From a virus (Duplodnaviria > Heunggongvirae > Uroviricota > Caudoviricetes), in the IMG/VR virus record IMGVR_UViG_3300025602_000002, positions 102,718 to 166,717 of that record: a stretch of 64,000 nt of DNA; one strand, 5' to 3'. The first letter of the stretch is position 1, and each line of letters opens with the position of its first letter. Below are positions 1 through 13,845 of this stretch, piece by piece. The translations under genes and the position numbers were made by a program. Below the pieces are notes generated by a model. That model was not told the DNA's origin. It saw only the letters and a list, made by a program, of their open reading frames with translations, and ran no database searches.

Positions 1-236
1 TCAGTTATACAGCATCTTCGCAGATAATCGAGTGCTCCTCCTATCTGACTGCACGTTATGGGCCAATTATTCCCACTTTCACTTTACTATGCGGCTTTAA
101 AGCAGTTTAGCTAGTTTATAGTGTTGCCTACAGGTTCACGGCCTCTGGAGATACCAGATATTTATTGGGGCTTGGCTCCTGTAGTACAGATCGCGTATCC
201 TCCGACACCTTAGTCATGGGATAGGTCTTTTCAAAG

Positions 237-321
237 TGACCAGAGAGGGGGTCGAACCCTCATGGGCATAAAGCCCGCGAAATTTTAAGTCTCGTGCGTA
301 TACCAACTCCGCCACCTGGCC
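237..321 (-). tRNA. tRNA-Leu(TAA)
   Basis: Minus-strand cloverleaf with a 7-bp acceptor stem (two G-U pairs), GAGGG/TTCGACC/CCCTC T-arm, anticodon loop CTTAAAA and a long variable arm GGGC-TTTAT-GCCC. Confidence 0.7.
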
Positions 322-602
322 GTTACTTAGTTTTATATTGTCGTTTAGTTTTTCTAAATCGTTTCCAATTTCTATCACGAATAAATGAGCCATTTTCCCA
401 ACCGCCATGGTATGGGCATCTGTCGCAATTAATATTTCTGCGGCTGAGCTCTTTTCTTTTATAGAGTATTTTGTATAGCCTATTAATAGTAGTCCATACA
501 AACTCTTCGTACATTTTGTGTTTCACTTTAACTTCTCCTATTTAAGGGTGTTAAAGTGCGATATATTCCTTTTTCATTTTAAATTTCTTTCGTTAATTAA
601 TA

Positions 603-1643
603 TTATGCCATTTTTCTAAATGGCTCCATTATAGGTACATTGTCTGCTAAAAACCATTCTAAAGTACCTACCGTATCTGCCCCTATTAAGAATCCGTGAT
701 TCTTTAAATTTATAGCAAATAGAGTAGCTAATGGTTTTGTTATTTTAAGAATTTCCTCTACCTCTCTAAGATCCCCGCATGGGTAATAATGTTCAGTACT
801 GCGTCCCTCTTTAAAAAAGGCATGCCCATGAATCATAAAATTAATTTTAGGAAGCTTTTTATATAATTCTAATTGAACCGGTGTATCTACAGAGGGTTTA
901 TTATCCCCAACATAGCCGTCATTAGTTACGTATACCATGTCTCCAGCTTCTAACTCAAGTTTACTAACGTTACGAGGGGAAACTAAACAACCGCTTTCAC
1001 TTCTTACAGATGGAAATGTAGACATACATCTAGTGCTACAGTTGCCAAAGTATCTATCGGAAGTTCCTTCCATTATATTTTTTGCATTTTCTCTTACTAA
1101 ATGCATAAATTCTTCAATTTCAGTATGTTTTGGTGTAGAAACTCTTTTTTGCTGACTATTCCAGTTATAAAATGTATGAATAGTATTAGCTAATGCTGAA
1201 GTATTACAAGTAGTTATCCAAATATTTCCTAAAGCGTCAATAAGACTAAAAGTTTTAAAATTAGGAGTATTTTCAATTGCAATTACTGCATTTGCCCGCA
1301 TTTTAAAAATTCGTTGAACAGCCTCAAAATATTTATGGTGGCCTGTTAGAGCTTTTTCTATTAACCTCTCTGTGCTTTCCGCCCTACGAACCACTTTAGA
1401 AACAATTAAGCAAGAACCTACTTTTTTTATTGGATACTGCTTAGTTACTGCATTAGAAATATTAGGCATCCAAATTGTAAGCCCGTCAACCTTTTCAGGT
1501 AAATCTTTGACATCTCCACCATTATAAACTGTAGGAACCTCAAAAAAGCGTGCTAATTTAATTATAATACTTGATTCTTTTTTTAAAGTTTTATCTCCAA
1601 AAATTGGTTCTTGCCAGTTGCCTCCTACTATTGTAGTTTTCAT
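603..1643 (-). CDS. Hypothetical protein, 346 aa
   Basis: Long ORF in the supplied track, TAA stop. No confident family assignment from sequence. Confidence 0.5.
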   Translation of the reverse strand: MKTTIVGGNWQEPIFGDKTLKKESSIIIKLARFFEVPTVYNGGDVKDLPEKVDGLTIWMPNISNAVTKQYPIKKVGSCLIVSKVVRRAESTERLIEKALTGHHKYFEAVQRIFKMRANAVIAIENTPNFKTFSLIDALGNIWITTCNTSALANTIHTFYNWNSQQKRVSTPKHTEIEEFMHLVRENAKNIMEGTSDRYFGNCSTRCMSTFPSVRSESGCLVSPRNVSKLELEAGDMVYVTNDGYVGDNKPSVDTPVQLELYKKLPKINFMIHGHAFFKEGRSTEHYYPCGDLREVEEILKITKPLATLFAINLKNHGFLIGADTVGTLEWFLADNVPIMEPFRKMA

Positions 1644-1666
1644 TTGTTTTCCTTTTCTTAAATTTG

Positions 1667-1741
1667 TGACCCCTGACGGATTTGAACCGCCGACACCCTG
1701 GATGTAAACCAGGTGCTCTGCCCAGACTGAGCTAAGGAGCC
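1667..1741 (-). tRNA. tRNA-Val(TAC)
   Basis: Acceptor GGCTCCT/AGGGGTC, D-arm GCTCAGTCTGGGCAGAGC, anticodon stem CCTGG/CCAGG with loop TTTACAT, T-loop TTCAAAT. Confidence 0.75.
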
Positions 1742-1745
1742 AAAG

Positions 1746-1792
1746 GGCGGGCTTTTCACCCGCTCGTCGAGGTATAGGCCCCGCTACACTTT
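1746..1792 (-). terminator. Possible rho-independent terminator after CDS 1795..2544
   Basis: GC hairpin GCGGG-TGAAAAG-CCCGC on the minus strand followed by CTTTGG. The T-run is weak. Confidence 0.3.
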
Positions 1793-1794
1793 CT

Positions 1795-2544
1795 TTAGAA
1801 TTCGACAGATAGTGCCAATATCTTAGACTCTCCGTCTTCGTATACTAAATAGGCGTTGCCGAATTTATAACCAATACCCCAAAGGGCTTCGTCATCCATT
1901 TCGCCATATAAACCTACCATATTACCCCACTGAAGTGAAGTAGTATACCAAAGAATCTCATCTTCAACGTATTCAAACTGAACTTTTTCAGTCATATTGA
2001 AAAATGAAGCTTCTGTATTAAAATCCCAAATAGGTTCTGCGCCGGGGGCGTTACTATCTGAATATCCTAACTGAAGCGTGTCTATTCCTAAAAGATCATT
2101 AAAGTTTGGAGCAATTCTCCAACAATAATTATCGTTGTTCTGATAGAAAATTCCAAAATCTCTATCTCCTACTAAAACTCCAGTTTGCACGTCGTGCATT
2201 CTAGGAGTAGAATAGAAGTTGCTTTGAGAAGGTCTATGTAAGGCCCAAGCATTTCCATAAGGAAGTGGTTGTAGTCCTACTGTAAACAATCCAAAACGGA
2301 TGTTGGCTTCTTCTACATTGACCAATTGACTCTCAATGTTGAGGCCCAGGTTCCAATTTTCGCCTTGAAGTTGGAATCCCAGATAGCCAAGATCGTTTGT
2401 TAGTGAATCGCTATCGCTAACATTTAAAAAGGTTTCAAAATCCCCACTAATAGTGATATCCTGCGAAACAGTAGTATCAAATGTAGGGAACTGGGCCATT
2501 GTAAATGTAAACAGCGTTACACATAGCAAAAGTATCTTTTTCAT
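1795..2544 (-). CDS. Putative secreted outer-membrane beta-barrel protein
   Basis: N-terminal signal peptide MKKILLLCVTLFTFTMA and an alternating hydrophobic C-terminus ending in a terminal Phe (...ILALSVEF), as in outer-membrane protein signatures. Confidence 0.45.
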   Translation of the reverse strand: MKKILLLCVTLFTFTMAQFPTFDTTVSQDITISGDFETFLNVSDSDSLTNDLGYLGFQLQGENWNLGLNIESQLVNVEEANIRFGLFTVGLQPLPYGNAWALHRPSQSNFYSTPRMHDVQTGVLVGDRDFGIFYQNNDNYCWRIAPNFNDLLGIDTLQLGYSDSNAPGAEPIWDFNTEASFFNMTEKVQFEYVEDEILWYTTSLQWGNMVGLYGEMDDEALWGIGYKFGNAYLVYEDGESKILALSVEF

Positions 2545-2588
2545 ATTTCTCCTTGTTTATTATTCTATTATCGTGACACATGTCACTG

Positions 2589-2672
2589 TACCTTCGGAGA
2601 GACTTGAACTCTCAAGATCTTTCAACCAACGGTGTCTAAGACCGCCGTGTATACCATTTCCACCACGAAGGC
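2589..2672 (-). tRNA. tRNA-Leu(TAG), class II
   Basis: Anticodon stem GCGGT/ACCGT with loop CTTAGAC, long variable arm, T-arm GAGAG/TTCAAGT/CTCTC. The 1-72 pair is G-T. Confidence 0.55.
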
Positions 2673-2676
2673 ATTG

Positions 2677-2752
2677 TGGCCGGGACAGGGCTCGAACCTG
2701 TAGCTGACAGGGATTTAGAGTCCCCCGCTCTATCCAATTGAGCTACCCAGCC
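2677..2752 (-). tRNA. Amber suppressor tRNA (anticodon CTA); amino-acid identity undetermined
   Basis: GGCTGGG TA GCTC AATTGGATA GAGC G GGGGA-CTCTAAA-TCCCT GTCAGCT ACAGG-TTCGAGC-CCTGT CCCGGCC A. Positions 34-36 of the 7-nt loop are CTA, with U33 and A37 present. The acceptor stem pairs with one G-U. Confidence 0.7.
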
Positions 2753-2757
2753 ACTAT

Positions 2758-3054
2758 TTATAAGGTTCTTAAGCTTTTAAATAATTTATTATTATTTTCA
2801 ACTGCAATAGCAGTTAGTTGCCCGTCTAAATCAGGCTCATAAAAAGAGGAATGACTAACATCCCGGGATGAAAGTTTGTATTGCCATTTTTCGAGCTCCT
2901 GTTCATCCCGAACTGCAAGATAAATGAGATAATCGTTATTCCATTCCTGTGTGTTGCCATTAAGTAAAATTTCTGCAACTGCATGCCCTCCTTGGACTGC
3001 TGCGTAAACTGGATCTAAATCCTTTCTACATAATATAAATAAAAAAGGGGACAT
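2758..3054 (-). CDS. Possible Pth2-like peptidyl-tRNA hydrolase
   Basis: 98 aa. The motif AAVQGGHAVAE resembles the Pth2 catalytic motif. The call is from memory only and is weak. Confidence 0.25.
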   Translation of the reverse strand: MSPFLFILCRKDLDPVYAAVQGGHAVAEILLNGNTQEWNNDYLIYLAVRDEQELEKWQYKLSSRDVSHSSFYEPDLDGQLTAIAVENNNKLFKSLRTL

Positions 3055-3056
3055 GA

Positions 3057-3335
3057 TTATGACCCCTCCTGAATTCTTTCGACGTATTCTTCTTTATATA
3101 ATGTTATTCTAGTTTCATTTGGGGGATTTTTGGTATGTCTCTCGATCTGCTCACGAGTGCGACCTCTAAGCTCACAGCGCGCAATATGCCTATGTCTAAA
3201 CTCTGTAGACTTTGTCTCAATATTACACTGTAATTGCCAATCTGATCCATTTCCTTTTCTTTCCTTTTTGAGATCTCTGATCCCCTTTCCTAAACTTTTT
3301 TGTTCTTCTTTAATTTCTAAAATTGTTTTGTTCAT
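3057..3335 (-). CDS. Hypothetical basic protein
   Basis: ORF of 92 aa, rich in Lys/Arg/Glu. Confidence 0.35.
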   Translation of the reverse strand: MNKTILEIKEEQKSLGKGIRDLKKERKGNGSDWQLQCNIETKSTEFRHRHIARCELRGRTREQIERHTKNPPNETRITLYKEEYVERIQEGS

Positions 3336-3517
3336 GTCTTCTCCTTGAAGTTTGTTACTTAGTTACTTGTATTTTTATGTAATCTAAGTTTCAAGGAGGA
3401 CCTCGCAAACAAATCTAGCTAAATTGCATTATGTAATTCTTCTTCATTTTTAAATATAACTATTAGTTTTGGTTAAATCAATTGTTTTCTTTATCTTTCG
3501 CCACCGCCTTAATATGT

Positions 3518-3590
3518 GGTCCAGGATGGAGTTGAACCATCAACCTCCCGGTTATCAGCCGGGTGCTCTAACCAATTGAGCTACCGGACC
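3518..3590 (-). tRNA. tRNA-Ile(GAT)
   Basis: Acceptor GGTCCGG/CCTGGACC, anticodon stem CCCGG/CCGGG with loop CTGATAA, T-loop TTCAACT. Confidence 0.75.
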
Positions 3591-3596
3591 AGTTTA

Positions 3597-3971
3597 TTAA
3601 GATGCATTTAATAATAAGTGTTGAACGTATCCAGCCTCTATAAAGTGATAAAGCGCTGCAAAAGCTGGTACTAAAAAAGCCACCCCTACAATATGTAAGA
3701 TTATTATGTATTTAGCTATTAAGATTATTGCTATTGCGGCAATAACTTTTAAACTAGCTGAAGTCAAACTTAACTGTTGACTATACTGTACCCCTGCGGT
3801 TTTATATGCGCTAATTGAGAGTAACCCTAACCCTGCAAATATAAAATTGCATACTATTATTTCCACAGAGGTAGTTAAGAGCCCTATTGCAAGAAAAATG
3901 CAATACCATAGAATCATAACGCTAAATCCGTTTTTTATTTGTATATTCCCTAATTGTATAAATGAGAACAT
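3597..3971 (-). CDS. Hypothetical membrane protein
   Basis: Several hydrophobic helices; directly downstream of tRNA-Ile. Confidence 0.4.
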   Translation of the reverse strand: MFSFIQLGNIQIKNGFSVMILWYCIFLAIGLLTTSVEIIVCNFIFAGLGLLSISAYKTAGVQYSQQLSLTSASLKVIAAIAIILIAKYIIILHIVGVAFLVPAFAALYHFIEAGYVQHLLLNAS

Positions 3972-3983
3972 ATTTTTCCTTTC

Positions 3984-4352
3984 TTATTTTTTATATTTTA
4001 TCCATTCCGCAAGCCATATATCTGCTCGAGAATGTATTTTTGGCCAAATAAGTCCCCTAACTTGCACAGGGATTATTTTGAGCTTGTTGAGACGTGTTTT
4101 AAACTGCGCTTTTTTGAAGGCCTCCGCAGCTTCTTTCGTAGGCAATAAATGCCAACCTGAAGTATATACCGTAGCATGACTTCCATCCTTTATTGGTTTC
4201 TGATCAGACTTTAGCCATTTATTAGGCTCTAAGTGTCTAGATCGGTTTGTTCCATGGAATAGTGTGCGTACTCCGCCCTTATACTCTTCCACAATTCTAT
4301 AATATATTGTCGTCGTTTTCAGTTGTCGAATATTAGGGCGATTGTCTTTCAT
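3984..4352 (-). CDS. Hypothetical protein
   Basis: ORF of 122 aa, TAA stop. Confidence 0.4.
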   Translation of the reverse strand: MKDNRPNIRQLKTTTIYYRIVEEYKGGVRTLFHGTNRSRHLEPNKWLKSDQKPIKDGSHATVYTSGWHLLPTKEAAEAFKKAQFKTRLNKLKIIPVQVRGLIWPKIHSRADIWLAEWIKYKK

Positions 4353-4720
4353 TAATTATTTTTGATTGTTATCGTTATTTTTGTATCTTTGGGAATTAGT
4401 TCCTTTCCTGGGCACCATCTCGGACTTGGTATATCTCCAAAAGTAGTAAAGCAGTTTTCGCCTCCAATTTTTGGAAAAGTTGTTACCTTACAGCAATACT
4501 GCATGTACTGTATTCCCTGCCCATTTGCAGTATATTCATGAGTATCTACCAAGTATTTACAACCGTTACAATACTGATCGTAGTTATCTATTTCCCAAAT
4601 GGTAGCTAAGTCATATCCTTTACTTTCACAGGTAGGGCAAGGAATTGGCCACGGTACTAAACCTTTAGCGTCATATTTACCCTTACCCTCGCACGTTTTA
4701 CAAACTATTTTTACTTTCAT
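4352..4720 (-). CDS. Cys-rich, probably zinc-binding, protein
   Basis: CxxC pairs: CKTCEGKG, CPTCESKG, CNGCKY. Confidence 0.4.
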   Translation of the reverse strand: MKVKIVCKTCEGKGKYDAKGLVPWPIPCPTCESKGYDLATIWEIDNYDQYCNGCKYLVDTHEYTANGQGIQYMQYCCKVTTFPKIGGENCFTTFGDIPSPRWCPGKELIPKDTKITITIKNN

Positions 4721-5271
4721 TAGCAGTTACCTATAAATCCACGATCCTCTTGTAAAGAATCATAAATATCGGGAATTAACCCCTTTTTAAATCTTTGTTC
4801 TTTCCGATGAGCTAATACTACATTTACGGCTGCTGCTAAATTAGTACAGTGGGCCGTGGGTAGTACCACAAATCGATGACAATGTTGTAATGTTTTCCAA
4901 TCCAGCCCACCATCTTCTGGGCCGAATACATACACTGCGTTTTCAGGATGTTCAAAATCAAATAACATTTCAGATCCAGGCCTTAATTCTATTGCTACCG
5001 GAACTGTGTCTTCGCTAAAATTTTTCAATGTATGTTTTAACGTATCAACTCTATGCATAGATACTTCTTTGTATCCCTTCATACGTTCTTCCCTTGGAAG
5101 TCTATATTTTTCTGTCCATTCATCTGGATGCTGCACTCTATGTCCAGTCCAATAAACTTGCTCTGCTCCCCAACATGACGCTGCCCTAACTGTAGCTCCA
5201 ACGTTAACTGCAAACTTTGGGTTTGTCAGCATTATTGCAGGAGATATACCTTTAATTCTTTTAGGCTTCAT
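4720..5271 (-). CDS. SpoU/TrmH-family (SPOUT) RNA 2'-O-methyltransferase-like
   Basis: Motifs AVYVFGPEDGGL and FVVLPT...NLAAAVNVVLA match the SPOUT motifs II and III. Confidence 0.45.
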   Translation of the reverse strand: MKPKRIKGISPAIMLTNPKFAVNVGATVRAASCWGAEQVYWTGHRVQHPDEWTEKYRLPREERMKGYKEVSMHRVDTLKHTLKNFSEDTVPVAIELRPGSEMLFDFEHPENAVYVFGPEDGGLDWKTLQHCHRFVVLPTAHCTNLAAAVNVVLAHRKEQRFKKGLIPDIYDSLQEDRGFIGNC

Positions 5272-5631
5272 TTATAGCTCCTTAAACTCTTCCACAAATT
5301 TTGCCCAGGTTCCTGCATGGTCTAATCTAATGGATATTACATTATCATTATATCCGCATTGTATATAAGTACTAGATATGGAATGTAGTGTATAAGCCAC
5401 TGCCATACAAGGGCCCGTGATATCCATATTAGCATACGGAGTCCCATGTAATATGCTAATTATGTCAGGATCTATTATTTGGGCATACTTATTAACATCG
5501 CATGAGTCGCGGAGTCCTGCCTGTACTATAGCTCCTCGTATTAGTGTTAGGGCTTCTATCTGCCAAGTTTTTTCTGAATAGGTAGGGACTACTGGGTTAG
5601 TATAATCTTTATATGTTTTAATTTGTATCAT
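5272..5631 (-). CDS. Hypothetical protein
   Basis: ORF of 119 aa. Confidence 0.35.
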   Translation of the reverse strand: MIQIKTYKDYTNPVVPTYSEKTWQIEALTLIRGAIVQAGLRDSCDVNKYAQIIDPDIISILHGTPYANMDITGPCMAVAYTLHSISSTYIQCGYNDNVISIRLDHAGTWAKFVEEFKEL

Positions 5632-5639
5632 TTTATTTT

Positions 5640-6330
5640 TTGGTTAAGTTATCAGTTATAAACTAAATCGCCGAATAGAAGGGATCTTGGGGCTCTATTC
5701 GACGACTCTTCTCCAGTATTGCTACTGGGTAAAGGTGTTTCAAGTTGTTCAGGTCGCTCACCGAGGATCTCATGAATGTTTGGCGTTAGTTCGATCGGTG
5801 ATCAACCCGATAGCGTAGGCCCTCTCAACAGATCGCTGTGTGCGATACATCCTCTGTTCCAATCGTACATCCTCTGTGCCCTCAAGGCAACTTGAAAGTT
5901 TAATTAATGTATATAAATAGTGTGCTGTTACGCCAAAGACAACTAGGAGGCACTCCTAGCTACAGCCCCCAATGCCTTTTCCCTGGAGGTAGATTTTATC
6001 CAACTGCTACGTCATGTTTAGAGCATGAGTTATCACTCTTTAAAAGATGGCTGCTTCTAAGCCTACTTCCTACTTATAATTTGGTCGCGAGTGTAGTTTA
6101 TTACACTACATTCCCTCTCTAACAAAGAGGTTCCTAGACTTAGACGAACTCGCGTTAATTGGTGGGGAAGTACAGGATCTTGCACCTGCGCTGATATGCA
6201 TCAGCATATATCCGGATAACTTCCCCTCTAGCAGTTAGGATAGGACTTAAACCTATATATGTTACTAATCGCCAGTGACTGTTCACGCCACCCGTTTTTC
6301 ACATGTCTTAGTCTATTTGGACGACCTAAC
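5640..6330. other. GC-rich structured noncoding region upstream of a tRNA cluster
   Basis: No ORF of 60 aa or more on the gene strand. GC content is visibly above the AT-rich coding regions. Stable hairpins such as CTAGGAG-GCA-CTCCTAG are present. Confidence 0.4.
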
Positions 6331-6333
6331 TAT

Positions 6334-6420
6334 TGGTTGCGGTGACAGGACTTTAACCTGTGTCCTCCCCCCTGCCTGGGGGGCGAGCTATTCTCTGCTC
6401 TACACCGCGCCTATTAGGTT
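6334..6420 (-). tRNA. Degenerate initiator-like tRNA element (pseudo-tRNA?)
   Basis: C1-A72 mismatch and a GCAACCA 3' end like the adjacent tRNA-fMet, with good D- and T-arms. The anticodon arm is CCCCC-CAGGCAG-GGGGG with A at position 33, so it is not a canonical decoding tRNA. Confidence 0.35.
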
Positions 6421-6467
6421 TATTGTACCTTATTAACTAATAGGATTATTGCCTTCCGACAATGAAT

Positions 6468-6545
6468 TGGTTGCGGGGGAGGGATTCGAACCCCCGACCT
6501 CAAGGTTATGAGCCTCGCAAGCTACCAGACTGCTATCACCCCGCG
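6468..6545 (-). tRNA. tRNA-fMet (initiator, CAT)
   Basis: Close match to the bacterial initiator: CGCGGGG...GGCTCATAACC...GGTTCGAATCC...CCCCGCAACCA, with the C1-A72 mismatch and an encoded CCA. Confidence 0.75.
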
Positions 6546-6614
6546 TTTGATTTTTAAATTGGTAGCTCTCAACCTCAGCTCATGAGGCCACGGTTTTGTG
6601 CACTGAGAGCCTTG

Positions 6615-6686
6615 TAGCGGGAGCGGGGATCGAACCCGCGTTGAAAGAGTTATGAGTCCTTTCCGGAAGCCAACATCCTTCCCGCG
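6615..6686 (-). tRNA. Atypical tRNA-like element with a CAT anticodon motif
   Basis: Perfect T-arm GCGGG-TTCGATC-CCCGC and a 6-of-7 acceptor stem, but the anticodon arm has a 9-nt loop ACTCATAAC. It may be a degenerate Met/Ile2-type tRNA. Confidence 0.3.
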
Positions 6687-6916
6687 TCTATTTCTTTTCC
6701 GGAGCATTTTCCAATGGACAACCTTTTAAAAGACCTCTATTTTTAAAGTCCGCCTTTTCTCCAAATTGTAACGTCCATTTATCCGGTTCTGACAGTTTGC
6801 TGATTAGAGGGCATCCAGTCCATTTAGGGCATTGGGAACAACTTCCCACCCTTATCATTTTTTGCATAACTGCTCCTTTATTTTGTATACTGGTTATATA
6901 CTTAAGTATAGTGGTT

Positions 6917-7300
6917 TTAATTCTCAAAATCAAATAAGAATTCTACATTATCTACTTCAATTAATTCTTTTAGTCTATTACAAATGATTTTTTCCCAGAT
7001 ACCGTACTTATTAGCCAACCCGCTTCCTAGTTTTGATATGAGGAATATGTTATCATGTTTGACTTGTATCATAGCTGTTAACATATCAAATTCGTTTTCA
7101 AAAACTGTTTTGTATTCTTCCGGATGGTAGTATGAGCTATCTTTATAATTAGGATACTTTTTTGTAATAAACCCAAGGACATTAGGGAGGTCTCTAAGCT
7201 CTGAAGCACCTTTTTTACCTTTTCGTAATAAATTATCTCCAAACACAAAAATGTGTGTGGGATTTTCTATTAGATATTCTTCTGTAATTATTCTTTCCAT
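6917..7300 (-). CDS. Hypothetical protein
   Basis: ORF of 127 aa immediately downstream of the NAD cluster. Confidence 0.4.
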   Translation of the reverse strand: MERIITEEYLIENPTHIFVFGDNLLRKGKKGASELRDLPNVLGFITKKYPNYKDSSYYHPEEYKTVFENEFDMLTAMIQVKHDNIFLISKLGSGLANKYGIWEKIICNRLKELIEVDNVEFLFDFEN

Positions 7301-7303
7301 AAT

Positions 7304-7840
7304 TTATTCTTTATATAGTTGATGTCCTATAATATAGCCAAAGATACTTCCGTCGAGTAATCTTCCAGCCAACTCATACTCAGCTTTACAAATGTGTTCT
7401 CTAACTTTACCGCTACTTGCGTGAGTATACTCTGAAATCTTTCCTAAATCAATCGACTCTATAGCTGCGCATTTTTTAATTTCATCAATATCCTGCCACT
7501 TATGAACTTCTAACCCAGTATCATCATCGCCTACATAAATTACAATATTCACATTATAATACATAATCTGTATATGATTAATTAAACTCATCATATACGT
7601 ATGGTTATAATGTAATATAAAGTTATTTGGGAAAGCTTTAGCACACATTGCTACTTTGTCGTTGTAATCGCTTTGAAGAGGTTGTTCTATTTTAAAGGGA
7701 TTAAATGACGGGCAAATAAGTAATAAATCTGAACTAGGGTATTCGGAGTTATATATTTTATTATTTAAGTATTCAACAGCTGCCATATGTCCCAAGTGAG
7801 GAGGATCAAATGACCCCCCGTATATGTGAATTGTTCTCAT
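7304..7840 (-). CDS. Nicotinamide/nicotinate mononucleotide adenylyltransferase
   Basis: N-terminal motif IYGGSFDPPHLGHM, the (H/T)xGH motif of this family. Confidence 0.75.
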   Translation of the reverse strand: MRTIHIYGGSFDPPHLGHMAAVEYLNNKIYNSEYPSSDLLLICPSFNPFKIEQPLQSDYNDKVAMCAKAFPNNFILHYNHTYMMSLINHIQIMYYNVNIVIYVGDDDTGLEVHKWQDIDEIKKCAAIESIDLGKISEYTHASSGKVREHICKAEYELAGRLLDGSIFGYIIGHQLYKE

Positions 7841-8433
7841 TATTTCATCCTTATATATTCGTAATTTGGAGATTCCATAAAAGATAATCCTGCTGCAAAT
7901 GACAGAAGTCTGCTTGAGATTTCTACTTTTTTTGCTTTTTCAGAGGCTATGAAACTAAGTAAATTATAACCATTAATTAAGATTATTTGGTCTATATCTT
8001 CAAAGTCTCCTAACGACTGTTGCTCTGGTAAGTAACTTCCTAAAGCTCCCATTACTAAATGAGTTGCTTCATCTGACATTCCTGCGGTATTGATGGCTGC
8101 AGGAAATACTCTACAAGCCCCGTCTACTTCATATCCAGTTTCCTCCAACAATTCTCTACGCATAGCGTCTTCTGGAGTTTCTCCCTCTTCTATCATACCT
8201 GCTGGAAATGACCAAATGTAGTTATCTAACGCAGGTCTCCACTCCTTAATTAGTAAGAATCTTCCAGAGCGGTCATGAAATACTCCCGCTACAGACTTTT
8301 GGTTTCCAATTCTTCTAACTATTTCCCAATCAGTAGTTTCTCCAGCTTCATTTTCTAGATTTAATGTTTCAGCTATTACATGTTGGGGCTCTATTAAAGC
8401 GTCTGATACAAATTTAATCTTAATTTTTGGCAT
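7840..8433 (-). CDS. Nudix hydrolase, possibly ADP-ribose pyrophosphatase
   Basis: Nudix box GMIEEGETPEDAMRRELLEETG. Confidence 0.75.
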   Translation of the reverse strand: MPKIKIKFVSDALIEPQHVIAETLNLENEAGETTDWEIVRRIGNQKSVAGVFHDRSGRFLLIKEWRPALDNYIWSFPAGMIEEGETPEDAMRRELLEETGYEVDGACRVFPAAINTAGMSDEATHLVMGALGSYLPEQQSLGDFEDIDQIILINGYNLLSFIASEKAKKVEISSRLLSFAAGLSFMESPNYEYIRMK

Positions 8434-9224
8434 TAGGCTATGTCCCTTAAAAAGCTTGGAATATTATCGCGTTTATGACGGCTATTGTTTATCATACTTT
8501 CGATATTATTCATAACTTCTACAGAAACCGGAGATGGTACATTTTCACAGTCCATAGTACTCCACCAAATCAAATAAGAATCTAGTTCTTGGTATGTAAA
8601 TCCAAATTCTTGTTCATCAGTTTGTCCTTCCCATAATCCCGCAGAAGCTACCGCATTTGCATATTCGTTAGGTAGCTCTAATTCTCTAGCTATTTCTCTA
8701 ACTTCAAATTTGTAAAACTCTAACAATGGTTCAAAATCTACTCCACCGTCTCCATATTTAGTAAAGTACCCTATTTCGTATTCAGACTTGTTAGTTGTTC
8801 CTATTACGAGGTTATTGGTACTATTTGCTAGCAGGTACAGTGCAGACATGCGGGCCCGGGCTTTCATATTCCCTTTTGTGAGGGTAGTTATTGCCTCTGT
8901 TTGGATATAAGTCATACCCTCTATCATGGCGTCTACAGAAGTGGTAATATCTATACAATTAAGGTTTAATTGGAGATGTTTTGCAAGAGCTAGTATATTA
9001 TCAGCTCCATGAAATAAATTAGATATTGAGGGAATAACTGTTTCATGGTAAGGCAGCCACACCGCCATAACCTTCTCTGGCCCTAAAGCTCTTTGAGCTA
9101 AAGCCGCAATTACTGCGGAGTCTACTCCTCCAGATAATCCTATGACTACCCCATCAGCACCTGCATCTTCTACTGTTCTTTTTATAAAATCTTGTAAGTC
9201 AATTATGTCTTGTCTAAGTTTCAT
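8433..9224 (-). CDS. nadE: NH3-dependent NAD+ synthetase
   Basis: PP-loop motif GLSGGVDSAV; length typical for NadE. Confidence 0.8.
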   Translation of the reverse strand: MKLRQDIIDLQDFIKRTVEDAGADGVVIGLSGGVDSAVIAALAQRALGPEKVMAVWLPYHETVIPSISNLFHGADNILALAKHLQLNLNCIDITTSVDAMIEGMTYIQTEAITTLTKGNMKARARMSALYLLANSTNNLVIGTTNKSEYEIGYFTKYGDGGVDFEPLLEFYKFEVREIARELELPNEYANAVASAGLWEGQTDEQEFGFTYQELDSYLIWWSTMDCENVPSPVSVEVMNNIESMINNSRHKRDNIPSFLRDIA

Positions 9225-9241
9225 CTGTTTTCCTTTTTAAA

Positions 9242-9640
9242 TTAAGCAAAGCAGTTGTTTAATATGGTAACCGCCCTGTGTATGTTGTTATCTATGTAAG
9301 CTATTCCTCCTGCAGCATTTACTAACTCTACAGTAGCTTTTAAACTTTTGAGCTGTCCTTTATCAAATCCATCAGGCCTAACGTGCAATATAGTTCGTTT
9401 GCCGTGGGTGTGTGCGCTATTTACAACTTCTGCTATGGAAAATACTCCTTGCATTTCTTTAGAAATAAGATAAAAATGTACATTACATTTATTGTCTTTT
9501 TCATCCATTTCTATTGCTTGGCACGCCTCTGTCCAGTCTTCCACATCTGGATTAAAGTAGTCTATAGTTAGTTGAGGAATTATTTGATTCCTCCAGGTTG
9601 TATGTGCGCAAGTGCCTCCTAAAAATACTCTGTTTATCAC
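9242..9640 (-). CDS. Hypothetical protein, possibly nucleoside 2-deoxyribosyltransferase-like fold
   Basis: 132 aa with an N-terminal MINRVFLGGT Rossmann-like start. Weak. Confidence 0.3.
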   Translation of the reverse strand: MINRVFLGGTCAHTTWRNQIIPQLTIDYFNPDVEDWTEACQAIEMDEKDNKCNVHFYLISKEMQGVFSIAEVVNSAHTHGKRTILHVRPDGFDKGQLKSLKATVELVNAAGGIAYIDNNIHRAVTILNNCFA

Positions 9641-9816
9641 TGTTCCTTTCCTTTTTTACTGTTTAAATCATCTTGGATATTGTTATAAGTTTTTAACAAT
9701 TTAGCTTTTTCTTTGGCTCGTTTTTGATCATCTCCAATAGCCCATAATTTTAGAAACCCAGTCCATGTGACTTGTGGTTTTTCTTTCTTTTCTTTCATTT
9801 ATCCTCTTTGTTATTA

Positions 9817-9905
9817 GTGGCTAGGACAGGACTCGAACCTGCATACGCACCATGCGTCCACTATATAGTATATCTACTGAAGTGTTACTGAGTCGAACAG
9901 CCTAC
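9817..9905 (-). tRNA. tRNA-like 3' half or degenerate tRNA
   Basis: Canonical T-arm GCAGG-TTCGAGT-CCTGT and an acceptor 3' strand CCTAGCC-A, but no complementary 5' acceptor strand could be found. An internal hairpin ACGCA-TGG-TGCGT is present. Confidence 0.25.
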
Positions 9906-9950
9906 TACGCGAAGATGTTTCCCAATTACATCACCTAACCATTTTTTTTG

Positions 9951-10023
9951 TGGGCCCTGCTGGACTCGAACCAGCATCCTACACATTATGAGTGTGTTGC
10001 TCAGCCAATTGAGCTAAAGGCCC
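9951..10023 (-). tRNA. tRNA-Met(CAT), elongator or Ile2-type
   Basis: Acceptor GGGCCTT/AGGGCCC, anticodon stem ACACA/TGTGT with loop CTCATAA, T-loop TTCGAGT. Confidence 0.75.
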
Positions 10024-10116
10024 TGGAGGAGAGGACAGGGATCGAACCTGCAGACCCCCTTGCGGGGGCGCACCGGTTTTCAAGACCGGCAGAATACCAT
10101 TCTCTTACACCTCTCC
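10024..10116 (-). tRNA. tRNA-Ser(TGA), class II
   Basis: Acceptor GGAGAGG/CCTCTCC, anticodon stem CCGGT/ACCGG with loop CTTGAAA, long variable arm GCGCCCCCGCAAGGGGGTC, encoded CCA. Confidence 0.7.
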
Positions 10117-10210
10117 GTAAAGAGCGACGCGATACTTTTTTCTGCAGTTATTATATTGCGCGCTCCCATCTCCTTCTGCTCTTACACGCAAGCGATGGCA
10201 GATGAGTCTG

Positions 10211-10282
10211 TGGCGAAAGATGGAATCGAACCACCGTCGCGTGGATCTTCAATCCACCGCTCTACCCCTGAGCTACCCCGCC
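10211..10282 (-). tRNA. tRNA-Phe(GAA)
   Basis: Anticodon stem GTGGA/TCCAC with loop TTGAAGA, T-loop TTCGATT. The acceptor stem has three G-U pairs. The 5' end overlaps the stop of CDS 10273..10776. Confidence 0.55.
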
Positions 10283-10776
10283 GGAGTATTTAATAATTTA
10301 ATTGCTTGTTCTACATGCTCATCTTGTAGACCTAAATCTGTTTTTGTTTGTACTAGTCGATCCATTAAATGCTCCATGTCTGAGTCATCGTCCAAAATTA
10401 TGAAGGAATCGGCTCTTTCGTGGTAATGTTCTTTAGAGAACTCAGGATCTGCGTCGTATTCGGCATTATGCTCATCAAGCCATTGTTGAATTTCTATGCC
10501 TCTTCTTTTATGTAGTCTTGGGGTACTCTTCCCTATTACGAAGGGTAAATTGAATCCCAAGGCAGCAAATAGATGTCTAAACATAAATGAATCACCATGA
10601 AGTCTCCAAGTTGAGGATACTACTATTTGTGCTCCAGTTGCGTCAATTATTTGCTTTAAGCGTTCTACTAGCGTTATGTCTGGAAGCCATACATTTCCTA
10701 ACTTTTCTTCATGTCGTTTATGTACCGACTCACGATTATTGAGTACGCCGTCGATATCTAAAAATATTACTTTCAA
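10273..10776 (-). CDS. HAD-superfamily phosphatase
   Basis: Motif I (V)IFLDIDGVLN. A TTG start is likely. The TAG stop lies within the 5' end of tRNA-Phe. Confidence 0.5.
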   Translation of the reverse strand: MKVIFLDIDGVLNNRESVHKRHEEKLGNVWLPDITLVERLKQIIDATGAQIVVSSTWRLHGDSFMFRHLFAALGFNLPFVIGKSTPRLHKRRGIEIQQWLDEHNAEYDADPEFSKEHYHERADSFIILDDDSDMEHLMDRLVQTKTDLGLQDEHVEQAIKLLNTPAG

Positions 10777-11133
10777 TTATTCAATTCCTTCTTCTTTTTT
10801 CCATTTCTGGTAACGTTCAACTCTTTCCAAATATATCTCATACTCGGCTCGAGTTCCGCCTTTGCACCCTCCGTGACCGTCTGATCTGATCTGCCAACCA
10901 ACAAAGGCATAATGATCCTTGCATTTAGCTTCATATTTCGCTAATTCGTCTTCTTCAATAGGAAAAAAGTCATAAATTTCTGTTAAACGTTTAAAGGTGT
11001 AGTTGTCATGAGCGTTTGCTCTTGTGCCGTCTGAATATTTTATAGGTTTATAGCTTCTATAGCAATTGTTTGATTCGTCTAATTCCCATATATAGGAATC
11101 GTCTGGCCTGACTATATATTTTGGATTTTTCAT
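10777..11133 (-). CDS. Hypothetical protein
   Basis: ORF of 118 aa, same frame as and adjacent to the HAD phosphatase. Confidence 0.4.
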   Translation of the reverse strand: MKNPKYIVRPDDSYIWELDESNNCYRSYKPIKYSDGTRANAHDNYTFKRLTEIYDFFPIEEDELAKYEAKCKDHYAFVGWQIRSDGHGGCKGGTRAEYEIYLERVERYQKWKKEEGIE

Positions 11134-11153
11134 TTTTTAGTTCCTAAGTTAAT

Positions 11154-11242
11154 TGGGGTGTCGGACGGGATTTGAACCCGCATGAGGAGCAACTCCAACT
11201 CGGGTCACAGCCGAGTGCATTACCAAATCTGCCACCGACAAC
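11154..11242 (-). tRNA. tRNA-His(GTG) with an encoded G-1 and a long variable arm
   Basis: Anticodon stem CTCGG/CCGAG with loop CTGTGAC. The extra 5' G pairs with discriminator C73, which is the His identity element. CCA is encoded. The 17-nt variable arm and a U1-C72 mismatch are unusual. Confidence 0.5.
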
Positions 11243-11243
11243 G

Positions 11244-11327
11244 GGCTGATGGTAGGATTCGAACCTACGTGGACTTTCGTCACCTGATTACAAATCAGGA
11301 CCTTTCGACCGCTCAGGTAACACCAGC
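11244..11327 (-). tRNA. tRNA with anticodon TGT (Thr-like) and class-II-like long variable arm
   Basis: Acceptor GCTGGTG/CATCAGC, anticodon stem CCTGA/TCAGG with loop TTTGTAA, T-arm GTAGG-TTCGAAT-CCTAC. The architecture is atypical. Confidence 0.45.
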
Positions 11328-11337
11328 TCTATTTAAA

Positions 11338-11362
11338 AGTGGGGACGCTTGGCCCCCACGTA
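11338..11362 (-). terminator. Rho-independent terminator downstream of the NAMPT gene
   Basis: Hairpin GTGGGG-ACGCTTG-GCCCCCAC followed on the minus strand by TTTTAAATAG. Confidence 0.5.
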
Positions 11363-11363
11363 T

Positions 11364-12509
11364 TTAAACCTTTAATATTTGTTTACATAACGCAATCTCG
11401 TCTGGATCGCCTGTATGTTTTCCCGGGGAATCTGACAACTTAATAGCTGGTTCCCATACATCATTTAATTTAACAGCGTTAATTTTGATTACCATATTCA
11501 ATGGTGTAACGTCTGTATCATTAGTGAAGTTGGTACCAATTCCGTAAGCCGTTTTAATGTGCTTATTCACTTCTTTTTCGATGTGTACCGCTTTTTCGAG
11601 ATTTAAACTGTCTGAAAAGATTATTAATTTACTTTTCGGATCAATGTTTAAATGCTCATAGTGGTTAATAATTTTGTTAGCAAACACAAGCGGGTCCCCA
11701 CTGTCTTGCCTCACACCGTCAAATAGTTTAGAATACTTCATGGCAAATTCTTTAAGAAAAACGTCTGTAGTAAAGGTATCTGGTAAAGCTGTTCCCAGAC
11801 TTCCTTGAAACACTTCTACCCATTTCTCTAATACCATAGTAGTTGCCATCTTGTAACCGTATAGGCGTGATAAGACCATATATACTTCGTGAGCTTGTGT
11901 ACCTGTTGGGGTTAAATTATATTTTTTGGCAAAATGAACATTAGAGGTTCCTACCAATCCATGCTTTAAAATATTAAGAGTTTTATCATGTACGTCATAA
12001 GAGTGCCTTCGTCTAGTTCCGAAGTCGGCTACGCTTAAATGATTATCGTGTATAATTCTCAATTTTTCTATATTCTGTTTTTCTAACTCATACAGCGGGC
12101 TTAATTCCCCATTAGACATCTCTGAAATAATAGCCATAATAGGTACTTCCCACAGTATAGTCCTATACCAGGGACCTCTAATACATATCTCAAATTGATG
12201 TTGTTTACCGGGTTCATAAATTACTTCTACTTCAGAAGAGTCATACGCATACCCTTTTAAAAAGTCCCTATACACGGGAGTGAAATAATAACATTTCTTT
12301 TTTAAAAAAGTTGCTTCTGAATCAGTTAACCGTAGTGATCCCATTGCGTTAATATTGCTTATCAATTTTGTAGCAAACGAGTCACTAAACTCAACTGGAG
12401 TTCTCAATATCCACTTGTATTCTACTTCCAGGTTTGGAAATTGCTGACAAACAAACATTTGTTGTGTAAATTTATATATGTCGTTATCTAAAATTGAATT
12501 AATTAACAT
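11364..12509 (-). CDS. nadV: Nicotinamide phosphoribosyltransferase (NAMPT/NadV-like)
   Basis: 381 aa, consistent with NadV homologs (call from family-level resemblance, no specific motif cited). Part of the NAD salvage cluster. Confidence 0.8.
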   Translation of the reverse strand: MLINSILDNDIYKFTQQMFVCQQFPNLEVEYKWILRTPVEFSDSFATKLISNINAMGSLRLTDSEATFLKKKCYYFTPVYRDFLKGYAYDSSEVEVIYEPGKQHQFEICIRGPWYRTILWEVPIMAIISEMSNGELSPLYELEKQNIEKLRIIHDNHLSVADFGTRRRHSYDVHDKTLNILKHGLVGTSNVHFAKKYNLTPTGTQAHEVYMVLSRLYGYKMATTMVLEKWVEVFQGSLGTALPDTFTTDVFLKEFAMKYSKLFDGVRQDSGDPLVFANKIINHYEHLNIDPKSKLIIFSDSLNLEKAVHIEKEVNKHIKTAYGIGTNFTNDTDVTPLNMVIKINAVKLNDVWEPAIKLSDSPGKHTGDPDEIALCKQILKV

Positions 12510-12802
12510 TATTTGGTATCCTTTCCAGAGTGTATTGTACGTAATACGGTTAGGCTGGAAGAACCGTCAACCACCTCTATTATACAACGCTCGATAGCAT
12601 AGTCTTTCAATAAAAAGTGTCTTTCTGCTATCTTTCTCCAACCGTAGTTATCGTATCCTTGAACGTCTATTTTAGTGGGACTAACTTTAGTTATTGCCCA
12701 CCTACGTTGTGTCCAGTATGACGGAATGTGGTCTTCGCCAGTACTAGCTCGTACCGTTATAACGTCATCTACTTTTAATTTAAACATCTGTTTCCTCTCC
12801 AT
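12509..12802 (-). CDS. Hypothetical protein
   Basis: ORF of 97 aa; its stop overlaps the nadV start (ATGA overlap). Confidence 0.4.
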   Translation of the reverse strand: MERKQMFKLKVDDVITVRASTGEDHIPSYWTQRRWAITKVSPTKIDVQGYDNYGWRKIAERHFLLKDYAIERCIIEVVDGSSSLTVLRTIHSGKDTK

Positions 12803-12940
12803 TAAGTTTATCGAGTTTTCTACAAATTTGTAATAGAAGTATATCTGTAAGGGTTAGTCTGCCATTTCCAAATTTGGTTTCCAAAATAAGTTGTAAATCC
12901 TCATCTATGGTAGCTTCTAAAGGTAGTATAACCTCACTCA

Positions 12941-13276
12941 TTAATAAACCTTCTCGAGTATTTCCCAACGTGCCTCGGGAATATTAATTACTTGAACTAT
13001 TTCGCCATTGACAAAAAAAGTTAGTTTGTTGTCACCTATTGACACACGATCCGCTAAGTATTCTTTGTCATATTTAATATTATAAGCTTTGTCATAAACT
13101 GTAAGAGTATAGGTAGTTCTAGAATCATTTCCATAACCTAATTCTGTTTTCGTACCATTCGCATCTATAACACCAGAATTAAAAAGCTTTGGTATTGCCA
13201 CTGAGCCTATAATCCCTGCAATTACTAGAACAATAATTAGTTCTATTATTGTAAATCCTTTTTTACTTCCATTCAT
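12941..13276 (-). CDS. Type IV pilin-like (prepilin N-terminus) protein
   Basis: N-terminus MNGSKKGFTIIELIIVLVIAGIIGSVAIP matches the class III signal (G|FTLIE). Confidence 0.4.
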   Translation of the reverse strand: MNGSKKGFTIIELIIVLVIAGIIGSVAIPKLFNSGVIDANGTKTELGYGNDSRTTYTLTVYDKAYNIKYDKEYLADRVSIGDNKLTFFVNGEIVQVINIPEARWEILEKVY

Positions 13277-13724
13277 TTTCTTTTAGTTCCTTTCTTACTT
13301 TCATTAATGCTTTTCCTAAAAGGTTTGTACCTTTACCATTTTTTCCGATGCCCCATATTGCGTCGTTCCATTCAGCCGCGTCTTCTATTAATTCTGCATC
13401 TTGTGTACATAGTAAAATCTTTTTGTAAAGATCTATTTTGAATTTTTCTCTTAAGCACATAACCATAATGTCATATTTTACTTCTTCCCAATCTGGGCGA
13501 AGATTTACTTTATTACCCGCACGTTTAGATTTGCCAGGGGTTTTTAACTGTGCTATTTCTTTACGTATTGTGTTATTAAATGTTTTATGTGCTTGAAACG
13601 CATGCTCTACTGTTGGATATTCAATACCTTCTATAGTAATAGGGGAATGTGCAAAATTAGAAAAATATTGATCATAGCCTGATGGCTTCTTTGCGGAGAA
13701 AATTATTTGGTTTGTGTTTTTCAT
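13263..13724 (-). CDS. NADAR-domain (YbiA-like) protein
   Basis: Motif FSNFAHSPITIEGIEYPTVEHAFQAHKT resembles the NADAR/DUF1768 core. Confidence 0.45.
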   Translation of the reverse strand: MKNTNQIIFSAKKPSGYDQYFSNFAHSPITIEGIEYPTVEHAFQAHKTFNNTIRKEIAQLKTPGKSKRAGNKVNLRPDWEEVKYDIMVMCLREKFKIDLYKKILLCTQDAELIEDAAEWNDAIWGIGKNGKGTNLLGKALMKVRKELKENEWK

Positions 13725-13754
13725 TTGTTAGTTTGATTTTTATTATTTAAAAGT

Positions 13755-13838: not shown

Positions 13839-13845
13839 AACTTAA

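Follow-up and report, generated by a model that had tools for sequence, protein, structure and literature searches.

On its minus strand, the 64,000-nucleotide (nt) stretch analysed here (IMG/VR record IMGVR_UViG_3300025602_000002, positions 102,718 to 166,717; hereafter the window, whose coordinates are used throughout) carries at 2677-2752 a canonical, genuine transfer RNA (tRNA) with the amber anticodon CUA. Directly upstream lies a gene for a small protein predicted to adopt the fold of peptidyl-tRNA hydrolase 2 (Pth2). We consider it probable, from comparative evidence, that this tRNA is a functional phage amber suppressor, transcribed together with the small Pth2-fold protein, and that both belong to a two-part unit conserved in many huge phages. 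By walking out from the window genes, 91 kb of the phage genome were assembled (window coordinates -18,845 to 72,515; coordinates outside the window bear the prefix w), and statements on the whole genome refer to these 91 kb. The coordinates of the features are collected in Table 1.

ARAGORN called a tRNA at 2676-2752 of the minus strand with the anticodon cta at position 35, its label “Pyl” being derived from the anticodon alone. The Rfam model RF00005 matched 2677-2752 with its full length (1-71) at 58.9 bits (gathering threshold, 29; E over the whole window, 3.6e-10), and its alignment sets the 7-nt loop as C-U-C-U-A-A-A, giving the anticodon CUA without a shift of one nucleotide. Read directly, the sequence is GGCUGGG UA GCUC AAUUGGAUA GAGC G GGGGA CUCUAAA UCCCU GUCAGCU ACAGG UUCGAGC CCUGU CCCGGCC A. 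It comprises an acceptor stem of 7 bp with G1-C72 and a single U4-G69 pair, a 4-bp D stem (GCUC/GAGC), G18G19, a 5-bp anticodon stem (GGGGA/UCCCU) with the loop CUCUAAA including U33 and A37, a variable loop of 7 nt (GUCAGCU), a T arm with stem ACAGG/CCUGU and loop UUCGAGC, and the discriminator A73; the CCA end is not encoded. Everything expected of an elongator tRNA is present (cloverleaf stems, U33, a purine at 37, G18G19, a T-loop UUCRA and a score above gathering), as is the CUA anticodon in a phage genome that defines a Sup-CTA tRNA, on which ARAGORN and Infernal concur. An earlier note, made from the sequence of the window, had described at this place a 76-nt fold with canonical D- and T-arms, a 7-bp acceptor stem with one G-U pair, the loop CTCTAAA (U33, CTA, A37), a 7-nt variable loop and A73, in a tRNA cluster next to tRNA-Leu(UAG). 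Direct reading, ARAGORN and RF00005 agree with this description in each respect, and the tRNA-Leu(UAG) follows 3 nt downstream; the strand, left unstated there, is minus. The ARAGORN run suggested in that note returned the CTA anticodon, and the possible shift to TCT or TAA that it had raised finds no place in the covariance model, which keeps CUA. Its remark that the identity elements are not diagnostic by eye also holds; no sense isotype stood out in the comparisons given below.

The TAA stop codon of the Pth2-like gene lies 5 nt upstream of the tRNA. Both are presumably co-transcribed, since this gap leaves no room for a promoter; a scan for promoters and terminators around the gene-tRNA unit gave nothing above background. 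The AlphaFold2 model of the 98-residue protein reached a predicted local distance difference test (pLDDT) value of 90, and its top Foldseek matches in the PDB were the Pth2 structures 2zv3, 1wn2, 3erj, 1xty and 1q7s (E 6e-6 to 1e-3; template modelling score 0.65-0.81), all of the top 14 being Pth2/human Bit1 structures or a related protein of unknown function. In the model, the partner protein thus has the alpha/beta fold of Pth2. A match to PF01981 or any other Pfam entry is on record for none of the 90 database members of its family, in which Q21, G22, G23, H24, A25, W38, E73, P74, D75 and T81 are invariant; the open reading frame (ORF) of the window is intact and keeps all of these residues. 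The family profile aligned weakly with Pth2 of M. jannaschii (2zv3; E 0.18), with QGGHA matched and a two-residue deletion at the GKGK loop. The catalytic residues of S. solfataricus Pth2 are the GKGK-loop Lys and the Asp of the DAG motif; the invariant EPD of the phage family could supply the latter.

None of the family genes with a CUA tRNA downstream ends in TAG, and in at least 12 partner genes of relatives a TAG interrupts the frame, frequently close to the N-terminus (L028 14135-14449, L109, L123-126, L130, L132-135, L138, L142). Synthesis of the partner protein in such relatives would depend on amber suppression, because the TAG is in frame and no alternative start codon is available. 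In L028, a distant IMG/VR relative whose SpoU protein is 52% identical to that of the window, the partner homologue (35% identical) is followed by a CUA tRNA 8 nt downstream and carries its TAG at codon 7, with a good ribosome-binding site before it.

The association of gene and tRNA extends well beyond the window. IMG/VR was scanned with the protein motif alone, yielding 80 confirmed loci with 4-kb flanks. A suppressor tRNA was present within 4 kb of the partner homologue in 70 of them, and in 62 (60 CUA, 2 UCA) it was the first same-strand tRNA downstream, separated from the gene by 7 nt to 1.6 kb, mostly by less than 450 nt. The flanking tRNAs differ from locus to locus while the adjacency of gene and suppressor persists. 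As a control, 38 tRNA-rich loci anchored on SpoU contained, among 169 tRNAs, one CUA tRNA, that of L028, directly behind the partner homologue; the partner gene is absent from tRNA-rich loci without a suppressor, and also from the loci of Gln-type CUA tRNAs in other phages. A reverse search through metagenome contigs, starting from the anticodon stem-loop, found the partner gene nearby upstream of 25 out of 37 CUA tRNAs, usually within about 100 nt, and several of the CUA tRNAs without it were on short contigs. The window fits this arrangement, as its CUA tRNA directly follows a same-strand gene with the family signature QGGHA...EPD...TAIA. Family members in GenBank come from Lak megaphages (in Lak-A1, a UUA tRNA lies 700 nt upstream), from the 735-kb phage LR756501, where two CUA tRNAs lie 2 kb downstream, and from a cultured isolate, Acinetobacter phage ME3, with an annotated “tRNA-OTHER, anticodon CTA” 450 nt upstream of the homologue; in Stenotrophomonas phage RAS14 the partner domain forms part of a larger fusion protein and has no tRNA in its vicinity. 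Taken as a comparison of loci, this survey shows the partner gene and the predicted suppressor tRNA to be a conserved two-part unit, whose adjacency outlasts the reshuffling of the neighbouring tRNAs.

The tRNA half of the unit is conserved in a characteristic way. Across 49 unique partner-linked tRNAs, the anticodon is CUA in 44-46, UCA in two and UUA in one; G1-C72 is found in 44 and A73 in 42. Despite very different sequences, the acceptor stem is fully paired (7/7) in 47 and the T stem (5/5) in 48. The loop reads YUCUAAA or CCCUAAA, and the tRNA of the window has the features of the family. In an alignment of 33 sequences, 92.5% of the stem cells were paired, for 62% in shuffles and 30-45% in slid controls; 20 of 21 pairs had changed on both sides, and none of 500 shuffles reached the observed values. 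The score of the anticodon stem was lower because MAFFT misplaces a gap there. Some members carry variable arms of 16-22 nt on otherwise identical bodies, which suggests loss of the arm within the family. The subfamily of the window tRNA shares the stem-loop GGGGA-CUCUAAA-UCCCU and the variable loop GUCAGC (L151, L175 and L179 have both), while acceptor stem, T stem and discriminator vary; L117/L193 have the same acceptor start GGCU, the same type of stem-loop and A73. As far as comparison can tell, selection on decoding tRNAs would be expected to leave such a pattern, in which the anticodon arm is constrained.

Regarding its origin, the nearest neighbours of the CUA tRNA in a set of 688 unique phage tRNAs are other CUA tRNAs (mean identity of the top five, 0.76); no sense isotype exceeds 0.67, and Gln stands near the bottom with 0.59. 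In global alignments to the tRNAs of the phage itself, the best match reached 68% identity, to Phe. The CUA tRNA does not appear to be a fresh anticodon mutation, because it has no near sense paralogue and its nearest neighbours are CUA tRNAs. By these comparisons, it belongs to an apparently old and diversified CUA lineage with a non-Gln body. Several more specific origins were considered. A mutational suppressor derived from a resident sense tRNA finds no support, the 91 kb containing no near-identical sense paralogue. Descent from tRNA-Trp was considered because a single C35U change turns CCA into CUA, and was discarded: the tRNA-Trp(CCA) of the phage, of the classical A1-U72/G73 type, is unlike the CUA tRNA. 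A Gln-type body, with a weak 1-72 pair such as U1-A72 and with G73, was rejected in view of G1-C72 and A73; the Gln-type phage suppressor L052, with U1-A72 and G73, is accordingly unlike it. tRNA-Pyl is recognized by a 6-bp anticodon stem, a 3-nt variable loop and a short D loop without G18G19, together with pylS and pylBCD genes. It is ruled out by the 5-bp anticodon stem, the 7-nt variable loop, G18G19 and the T-loop UUCGA, and no Pyl genes were among the Pfam matches recorded for the called genes across the 91 kb.

The amino acid carried is less clearly indicated. BLAST comparison with annotated phage tRNAs gave a mixture of Asn, Trp, Arg and Lys without singling out any, and the nearest-neighbour comparison with the 688 phage tRNAs likewise singled out no sense isotype. 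Rules from E. coli for CUA tRNAs with A73 would predict Lys or Gln. Substitutions between TAG and sense codons among related unit-bearing loci ranked CAG first and TAT second, and were too noisy to be used. The single TAG site of a phosphatase gene, described next, suggests that Tyr could be tolerated or intended at UAG.

Translated through its in-frame TAG, the gene at 13846-14556 gives a complete metallophosphatase with the motifs GDVHG, GDINDG and GNHD. A database search returned 824 homologues, the closest being 67% identical over 98% of the length and having TAT at the TAG codon; about 20 of 29 aligned homologues have Tyr in this column, the others F, L, M or P. N-terminal fragments of the phosphatase are on record from 43 contigs and C-terminal ones from about 50, and TAG was present in every recovered copy (approximately 45-50 contigs). 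The only full-length protein on record has Q at the site; this is a translation by a code-15 gene caller, since the underlying DNA still reads TAG. The TAG is thus a fixed feature of a gene that is otherwise intact, has no second lesion and keeps its coding potential on both sides. The earlier note had named amber readthrough in the phosphatase at 14368 as a possible use of the tRNA, and a TAG is indeed there, the only one in that gene. It had also proposed a genome-wide count of in-frame TAGs, which in the present work covers the 91 kb and gives this one convincing case. Three further candidates (34136, 56070 and w-682) were discarded, as they are adjacent genes in a shared frame with Met right after the stop. 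The use of TAG as sense in many genes that characterizes code 15 is therefore not what these 91 kb (of at least 211 kb) contain, with one in-frame TAG and 25 TAG-stopped genes.

The stop codon mainly recoded in this phage is a different one. Stop-codon maps combined with a codon-usage coding score place in-frame TGAs with good coding signal on both sides in plus-strand genes only, ten of them in the block at 46.2-51.7 kb. The mismatch between a CUA anticodon and UGA recoding on the plus strand, to which the earlier note had drawn attention, is therefore real, in-frame TGA being confined to plus-strand ORFs. Outside the window, on the same strand, there is one TGA in PhoH, and four TGAs join RNA polymerase ORFs into one frame. 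UGA is likely read as Trp on the plus strand, because the TGA of PhoH falls on the aromatic position of a conserved IG[YFH]LPG motif and TGG is rarer there, at 0.68% of plus-strand vs. 1.75% of minus-strand codons. Standard ARAGORN found no UCA tRNA in the 91 kb, and a search at low threshold with introns over 82 kb returned noise only. The ORFs of the block end in TAA or TAG, and the frames beyond these TAGs are full of stops; TAG therefore terminates translation in the recoded block. The two ways out of the mismatch offered by the earlier note, a second suppressor with UCA and separate amber readthrough, are not exclusive, because code-4 phages with both Sup-TCA and Sup-CTA are on record. 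No PHROGs family was found for the proteins of the block. The public gene calls retrieved break up both the phosphatase and the entire plus-strand block, and only gene calling with a strand-specific code will keep this genome and its relatives from mis-annotation.

Some further observations concern the recoded genes. The block is an opposite-strand island of about 6 kb between two standard-code minus-strand regions, and the products of its TGA-containing ORFs include a 564-residue protein with a lipoprotein-type signal (LTGC) and a 725-residue protein. Exactly at its border lies a tRNA at 45822-45893 of the minus strand, detected by Rfam only (58.7 bits); its body is Asn-like, its loop AUAUUAA gives the anticodon AUU, and pairing in its acceptor stem is poor. 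Outside the window, in L143 3116-9082 (about w-15,700 to w-9,760, plus strand), an RNA polymerase beta-like segment of 598 residues and a beta-prime-like segment of 1026 residues share one reading frame with two upstream ORFs, TGA codons being the sole separators; all of them may form one giant recoded polypeptide. Among the loci carrying the two-part unit, L070 (4326-4399) and L136 (4360-4433) have behind the Pth2-like gene a tRNA with a UCA anticodon and a Trp-like body, in 8-kb loci whose long ORFs hold 20-23 internal TAGs vs. 1-2 internal TGAs; these would be, as a lead only, the mirror image of the codon mismatch in the window. The CUA loci L088, L091, L095 and L114 show many internal TGAs, a count that is unreliable given their higher GC content. 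Coverage-based guesses of the code at single loci are unreliable in 8-kb, tRNA-dense pieces.

In the reading that we favour, the CUA tRNA would be processed by RNase P of the host, receive its CCA end and be charged by a host synthetase, and the charged tRNA would insert an amino acid at UAG in competition with release factor 1 (RF1). Suppression would permit the expression of genes with an in-frame TAG, in these 91 kb solely the metallophosphatase, while the genes ending in TAG (about 18%) would be extended tolerably, by a median of 5 codons. UGA recoding on the opposite strand, probably to Trp, would be served by a different decoder. Suppression would probably be partial or timed, because TAG is also a frequent stop. 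The partner protein might hydrolyse or recycle peptidyl- or acyl-tRNA produced by side effects of suppression, such as drop-off or the rescue of readthrough ribosomes, which is speculative; alternatively, it might act on the suppressor tRNA itself. This helper role is inferred from the fold, the position and the transfer-messenger RNA (tmRNA) of the phage itself only. The amber-suppressor reading of the earlier note gains comparative support from the retention of CUA, the compensatory changes in the stems and the coupling to the Pth2-fold gene. A bolder version, in which the Pth2-fold protein is a dedicated suppressor cofactor, stop reassignment proceeds by means of the two-part unit, and two stops are reassigned at once (UGA on one strand, UAG through the unit to a residue other than Gln, possibly Tyr), is advanced only tentatively.

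Several points weigh against functional suppression as set out here. TAG is not depleted as a stop: among 136 minus-strand genes (simple gene caller), 94 end in TAA, 25 in TAG (about 18%) and 17 in TGA, so that TAG is used more than TGA. It also ends three ORFs in the TGA-recoded block, to two of which efficient suppression would add 56-60 residues. With a single convincing in-frame TAG in 91 kb and TAG a common stop, efficient constitutive suppression looks costly and weakly needed. The population is nearly clonal, too uniform for purifying selection downstream of the phosphatase TAG to show. The 80 loci of the linkage set are not phylogenetically independent, many coming from one metagenome, and contain 43 unique tRNA sequences. 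As for the partner, its hydrolase activity is not assured, because the loop with the catalytic Lys of Pth2 is deleted in the family.

Part of this evidence could be accommodated by a vestige, that is, a unit inherited from a TAG-recoding ancestor and now devoid of a role, beside a phosphatase that recently became a pseudogene by a TAT-to-TAG transversion. The common use of TAG as an ordinary stop, the single in-frame TAG, the TAT of the closest phosphatase relative and the many unit-carrying relatives that appear TAG-recoded all accord with such a history. We nonetheless hold it to be unlikely: the CUA tRNA has no defect in its stems or conserved nucleotides, the partner ORF is intact with every invariant residue kept, and the phosphatase lacks a second lesion, has coding potential on both sides and has its TAG fixed in approximately 45-50 contigs. 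A comparably small likelihood is given to a tRNA directed at termination itself, which would read through natural UAG stops either of the host (takeover or anti-defence) or of selected phage genes (C-terminally extended isoforms), while the Pth2-like protein and the tmRNA clear stalled ribosomes. The presence of both the tmRNA and the Pth2-fold protein in this phage, the latter beside the tRNA, would suit this proposal, as would the short extensions after TAG (median 5 codons) and the pairing, in L070 and L136, of a UCA tRNA with TAG-rich ORF contexts, where the stop served is apparently not the recoded one. However, TAG is followed by in-frame extensions at least as long as those behind TAA or TGA, which gives no sign of adaptation to readthrough, and the in-frame TAGs in the partner genes of relatives point to sense decoding.

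Roles other than decoding (a decoy for host anticodon nucleases, a primer, or a regulatory RNA bound by the partner protein) appear very improbable. The near-invariant CUA, U33 and A37 and the fully conserved pairing of acceptor and T arms across divergent relatives are what decoding predicts, and in-frame TAGs do occur in these phages. Such roles would draw on the abundance of tRNA repair genes in the region (PNKP, two RNA ligases, a Thg1-like enzyme), implying conflict with tRNA-cleaving defences, and, for a primer, on an RVT_1 reverse transcriptase about 20 kb away, outside the window. An artefact, whether an anticodon displaced by one position, a tRNA pseudogene or an assembly error, has a negligible chance, given two independent methods that return CUA, an Rfam score 30 bits above gathering and identical ENA and JGI assemblies.

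Functional suppression coupled to a Pth2-fold protein, the explanation preferred here, would extend rather than repeat what has been described. Sup-CTA tRNAs are known from TAG-recoded (code 15) Lak megaphages, crAss-like and other gut phages (10.1101/2021.08.26.457843; PMC13037316). In the account of Borges et al., suppressor tRNAs match the recoded codon, only Gln is given for TAG and Trp for TGA, and the hydrolase is not mentioned (10.1101/2021.08.26.457843). The window shares with code-15 phages a phage CUA tRNA in a standard-code region, the presumed charging by a host synthetase and the competition with RF1, and with Lak phages also the partner gene family. In code-15 phages, however, many genes, late ones above all, contain in-frame TAG that is translated as Gln, whereas here TAG stops 18% of the minus-strand genes and is in frame once in 91 kb, the recoded codon is TGA and the body of the tRNA, with G1-C72 and A73, is not Gln-like. 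A closer parallel is offered by the Mgcod preprint, in which, of three code-11+4 genomes with a Sup-TCA tRNA, two have Sup-CTA as well (10.1101/2022.06.29.495998); the mismatch of a CUA suppressor with UGA recoding thus has a precedent. Those phages likewise use the standard code on one strand or block and TGA as sense on another, with the same apparent Sup-CTA mismatch, but they are crAss-like gut phages and the Sup-CTA observation was not followed there. The present case is a huge marine phage, without Sup-TCA in 91 kb, whose CUA tRNA is linked both with a Pth2-fold gene and with an identified in-frame TAG.

PTH2 proteins have been reported in jumbo phages beside tRNA repair genes and read as factors of ribosome rescue or recycling, with no mention of suppressor tRNAs (Iyer et al., 2021; PMC7824862). 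The archaeo-eukaryotic type of peptidyl-tRNA hydrolase fold and the proximity of tRNA repair genes are common to both cases; the present family differs in being short (about 95 residues), undetected by PF01981, without the GKGK Lys loop and almost always beside a suppressor tRNA. The cultured and experimentally tractable jumbo phage vB_AbaM_ME3 of Acinetobacter (KU935715) has a CUA tRNA about 450 nt from the homologue ME3_195, in reversed order: the tRNA lies upstream, one small ORF stands between them and the protein is 29% identical. No paper pairing Pth2 with a suppressor tRNA was found in the literature searched. Classical bacterial and T4 nonsense suppressors (supE, supF) arise by point mutation of a resident sense tRNA, and their CUA anticodon reads UAG against RF1. 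The CUA reading of UAG is common to them and to the window tRNA, which differs by the absence of a close sense paralogue and by its old CUA lineage. Phage suppressor tRNAs and recoding by strand or block were therefore already known, and three things go further here: the codon mismatch, the non-Gln lineage and the coupling of gene and tRNA, of which the latter two most deserve attention. The codon mismatch means that a single infection uses two stops as sense codons, or else that the suppressor serves for something other than the decoding of recoded genes. A non-Gln CUA lineage, some of whose members have long variable arms, questions the assumption that UAG in phages always stands for Gln, and the tight, widespread coupling to a Pth2-fold gene points to a protein component of code switching.

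The phage itself is represented in many public assemblies. Sequences identical to proteins encoded in the window occur in 59-85 blocks of the collection, where the contigs reach the 0.2-1 Mb class, and the DNA retrieved around them, from many metagenomes, is 100% identical to the window; the CUA tRNA is identical in the independent assemblies checked (ENA, JGI). One copy of the phage was binned in a metagenome-assembled genome of the marine “Candidatus Scalindua,” and the genome measures at least 211 kb. No near relative was found among GenBank phages, 25 kb of the window giving trivial tRNA matches only; the exact pattern of the CUA tRNA had no match in the IMG/VR collection scanned, and exact 40-mers from the edges of the 91 kb had none in metagenome or genome collections. 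IMG/VR relatives of the SpoU gene are on jumbo-phage contigs of up to 545 kb. We take this DNA to belong to a huge marine phage, on the basis of homologous IMG/VR jumbo and Lak loci, the tRNA array, the T4-type RNA repair genes and the phage-type RNA polymerase. ARAGORN placed 23 tRNA genes on the minus strand of the window and none on its plus strand; across the 91 kb there are 29, which cover all 20 amino acids plus CUA and include the classical tRNA-Trp(CCA). The 91 kb also hold a nicotinamide adenine dinucleotide salvage set and RNA polymerase beta and beta-prime genes.

Table 1. Features of the window discussed in the text, in window coordinates.
Feature	Position	Strand	Details and evidence
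Amber suppressor-type tRNA, anticodon CUA, 76 nt	2677..2752	-	ARAGORN, Rfam RF00005; identical in independent assemblies; covarying family
tRNA-Leu(UAG)	2588..2672	-	3 nt downstream of CUA tRNA, same transcription unit; ARAGORN and Rfam
98-residue Pth2-fold (peptidyl-tRNA hydrolase 2-like) gene	2758..3054	-	AlphaFold2, Foldseek
Metallophosphatase, Ser/Thr phosphatase family	13846..14556	-	One in-frame TAG as sole interruption
In-frame TAG of the metallophosphatase	14368..14370	-	Context AUA UAG GUU, between GDINDG and GNHD motifs
TGA-recoded block	46234..51650	+	Stop maps, coding-potential scans
ORF of the block	46234-47928	+	TGA at 46366, 46654, 47509
ORF of the block	47928-48470	+	TGA at 48135, 48312
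ORF of the block	48551-50728	+	TGA at 49271, 49508, 49724, 50282
ORF of the block	50737-51153	+	No in-frame TGA
ORF of the block	51168-51650	+	TGA at 51210
Standard-code “translation toolkit” region	236..31433	-	Contains CUA tRNA; 23 tRNA genes in window
SpoU methyltransferase	4720-5271	-	Toolkit region
T4-type PNKP	22610-23548	-	Toolkit region
RNA ligase	23933-25018	-	Toolkit region
RNA ligase	25662-26738	-	Toolkit region
Thg1-like 3'-5' polymerase	37050-37769	-	

Other elements of the translation apparatus deserve mention. With the Thg1-like enzyme, PNKP and RNA ligases of the Rnl2/PHA02142-like and Rnl1-like types, the phage has a full tRNA repair kit, which suggests conflict with host anticodon nucleases. 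The phage-encoded tmRNA, with the tag peptide GRPAVKLAA*, lies in L046 17093-17464 (about w-5820 to w-5449), and the RVT_1 reverse transcriptase and a GP88 gene are found outside the window, beyond the RNA polymerase, on the other strand. Several tRNAs of the minus strand are atypical. The tRNA-like gene at 15834-15906, reported by ARAGORN as “???” with the anticodon “cc” and scoring 38 bits with Rfam, can be folded with seven perfect base pairs in the anticodon stem (CUCUUAG/CUAAGAG) and the 4-nt loop UCCG or, alternatively, with a 5-bp stem and an 8-nt loop. Its body is Gly-like, with U73 and two acceptor mismatches, and the same sequence is present in assembly L007. A pseudogene and an unusual decoder are both conceivable. 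tRNA-His(GUG) at 11154-11241 (88 nt) and tRNA-Thr(UGU) at 11243-11327 (85 nt) have long variable arms and D arms of the type II kind; such arms are not normal in bacterial His and Thr tRNAs, and a similar Thr(UGU), likewise of 85 nt, occurs in the distant relative L028. tRNA-Ser(UGA) at 10024-10116 scores 50.3 with the Rfam model of tRNA-Sec (gathering 47), its anticodon being of the Ser type and not UCA. Finally, the stretch 18301-20909 of the minus strand encodes a 563-residue protein with a weak protein-kinase match and, adjoining it, a PP2C-type phosphatase; together with the TAG-interrupted metallophosphatase, these possibly form a phospho-signalling set of the phage.

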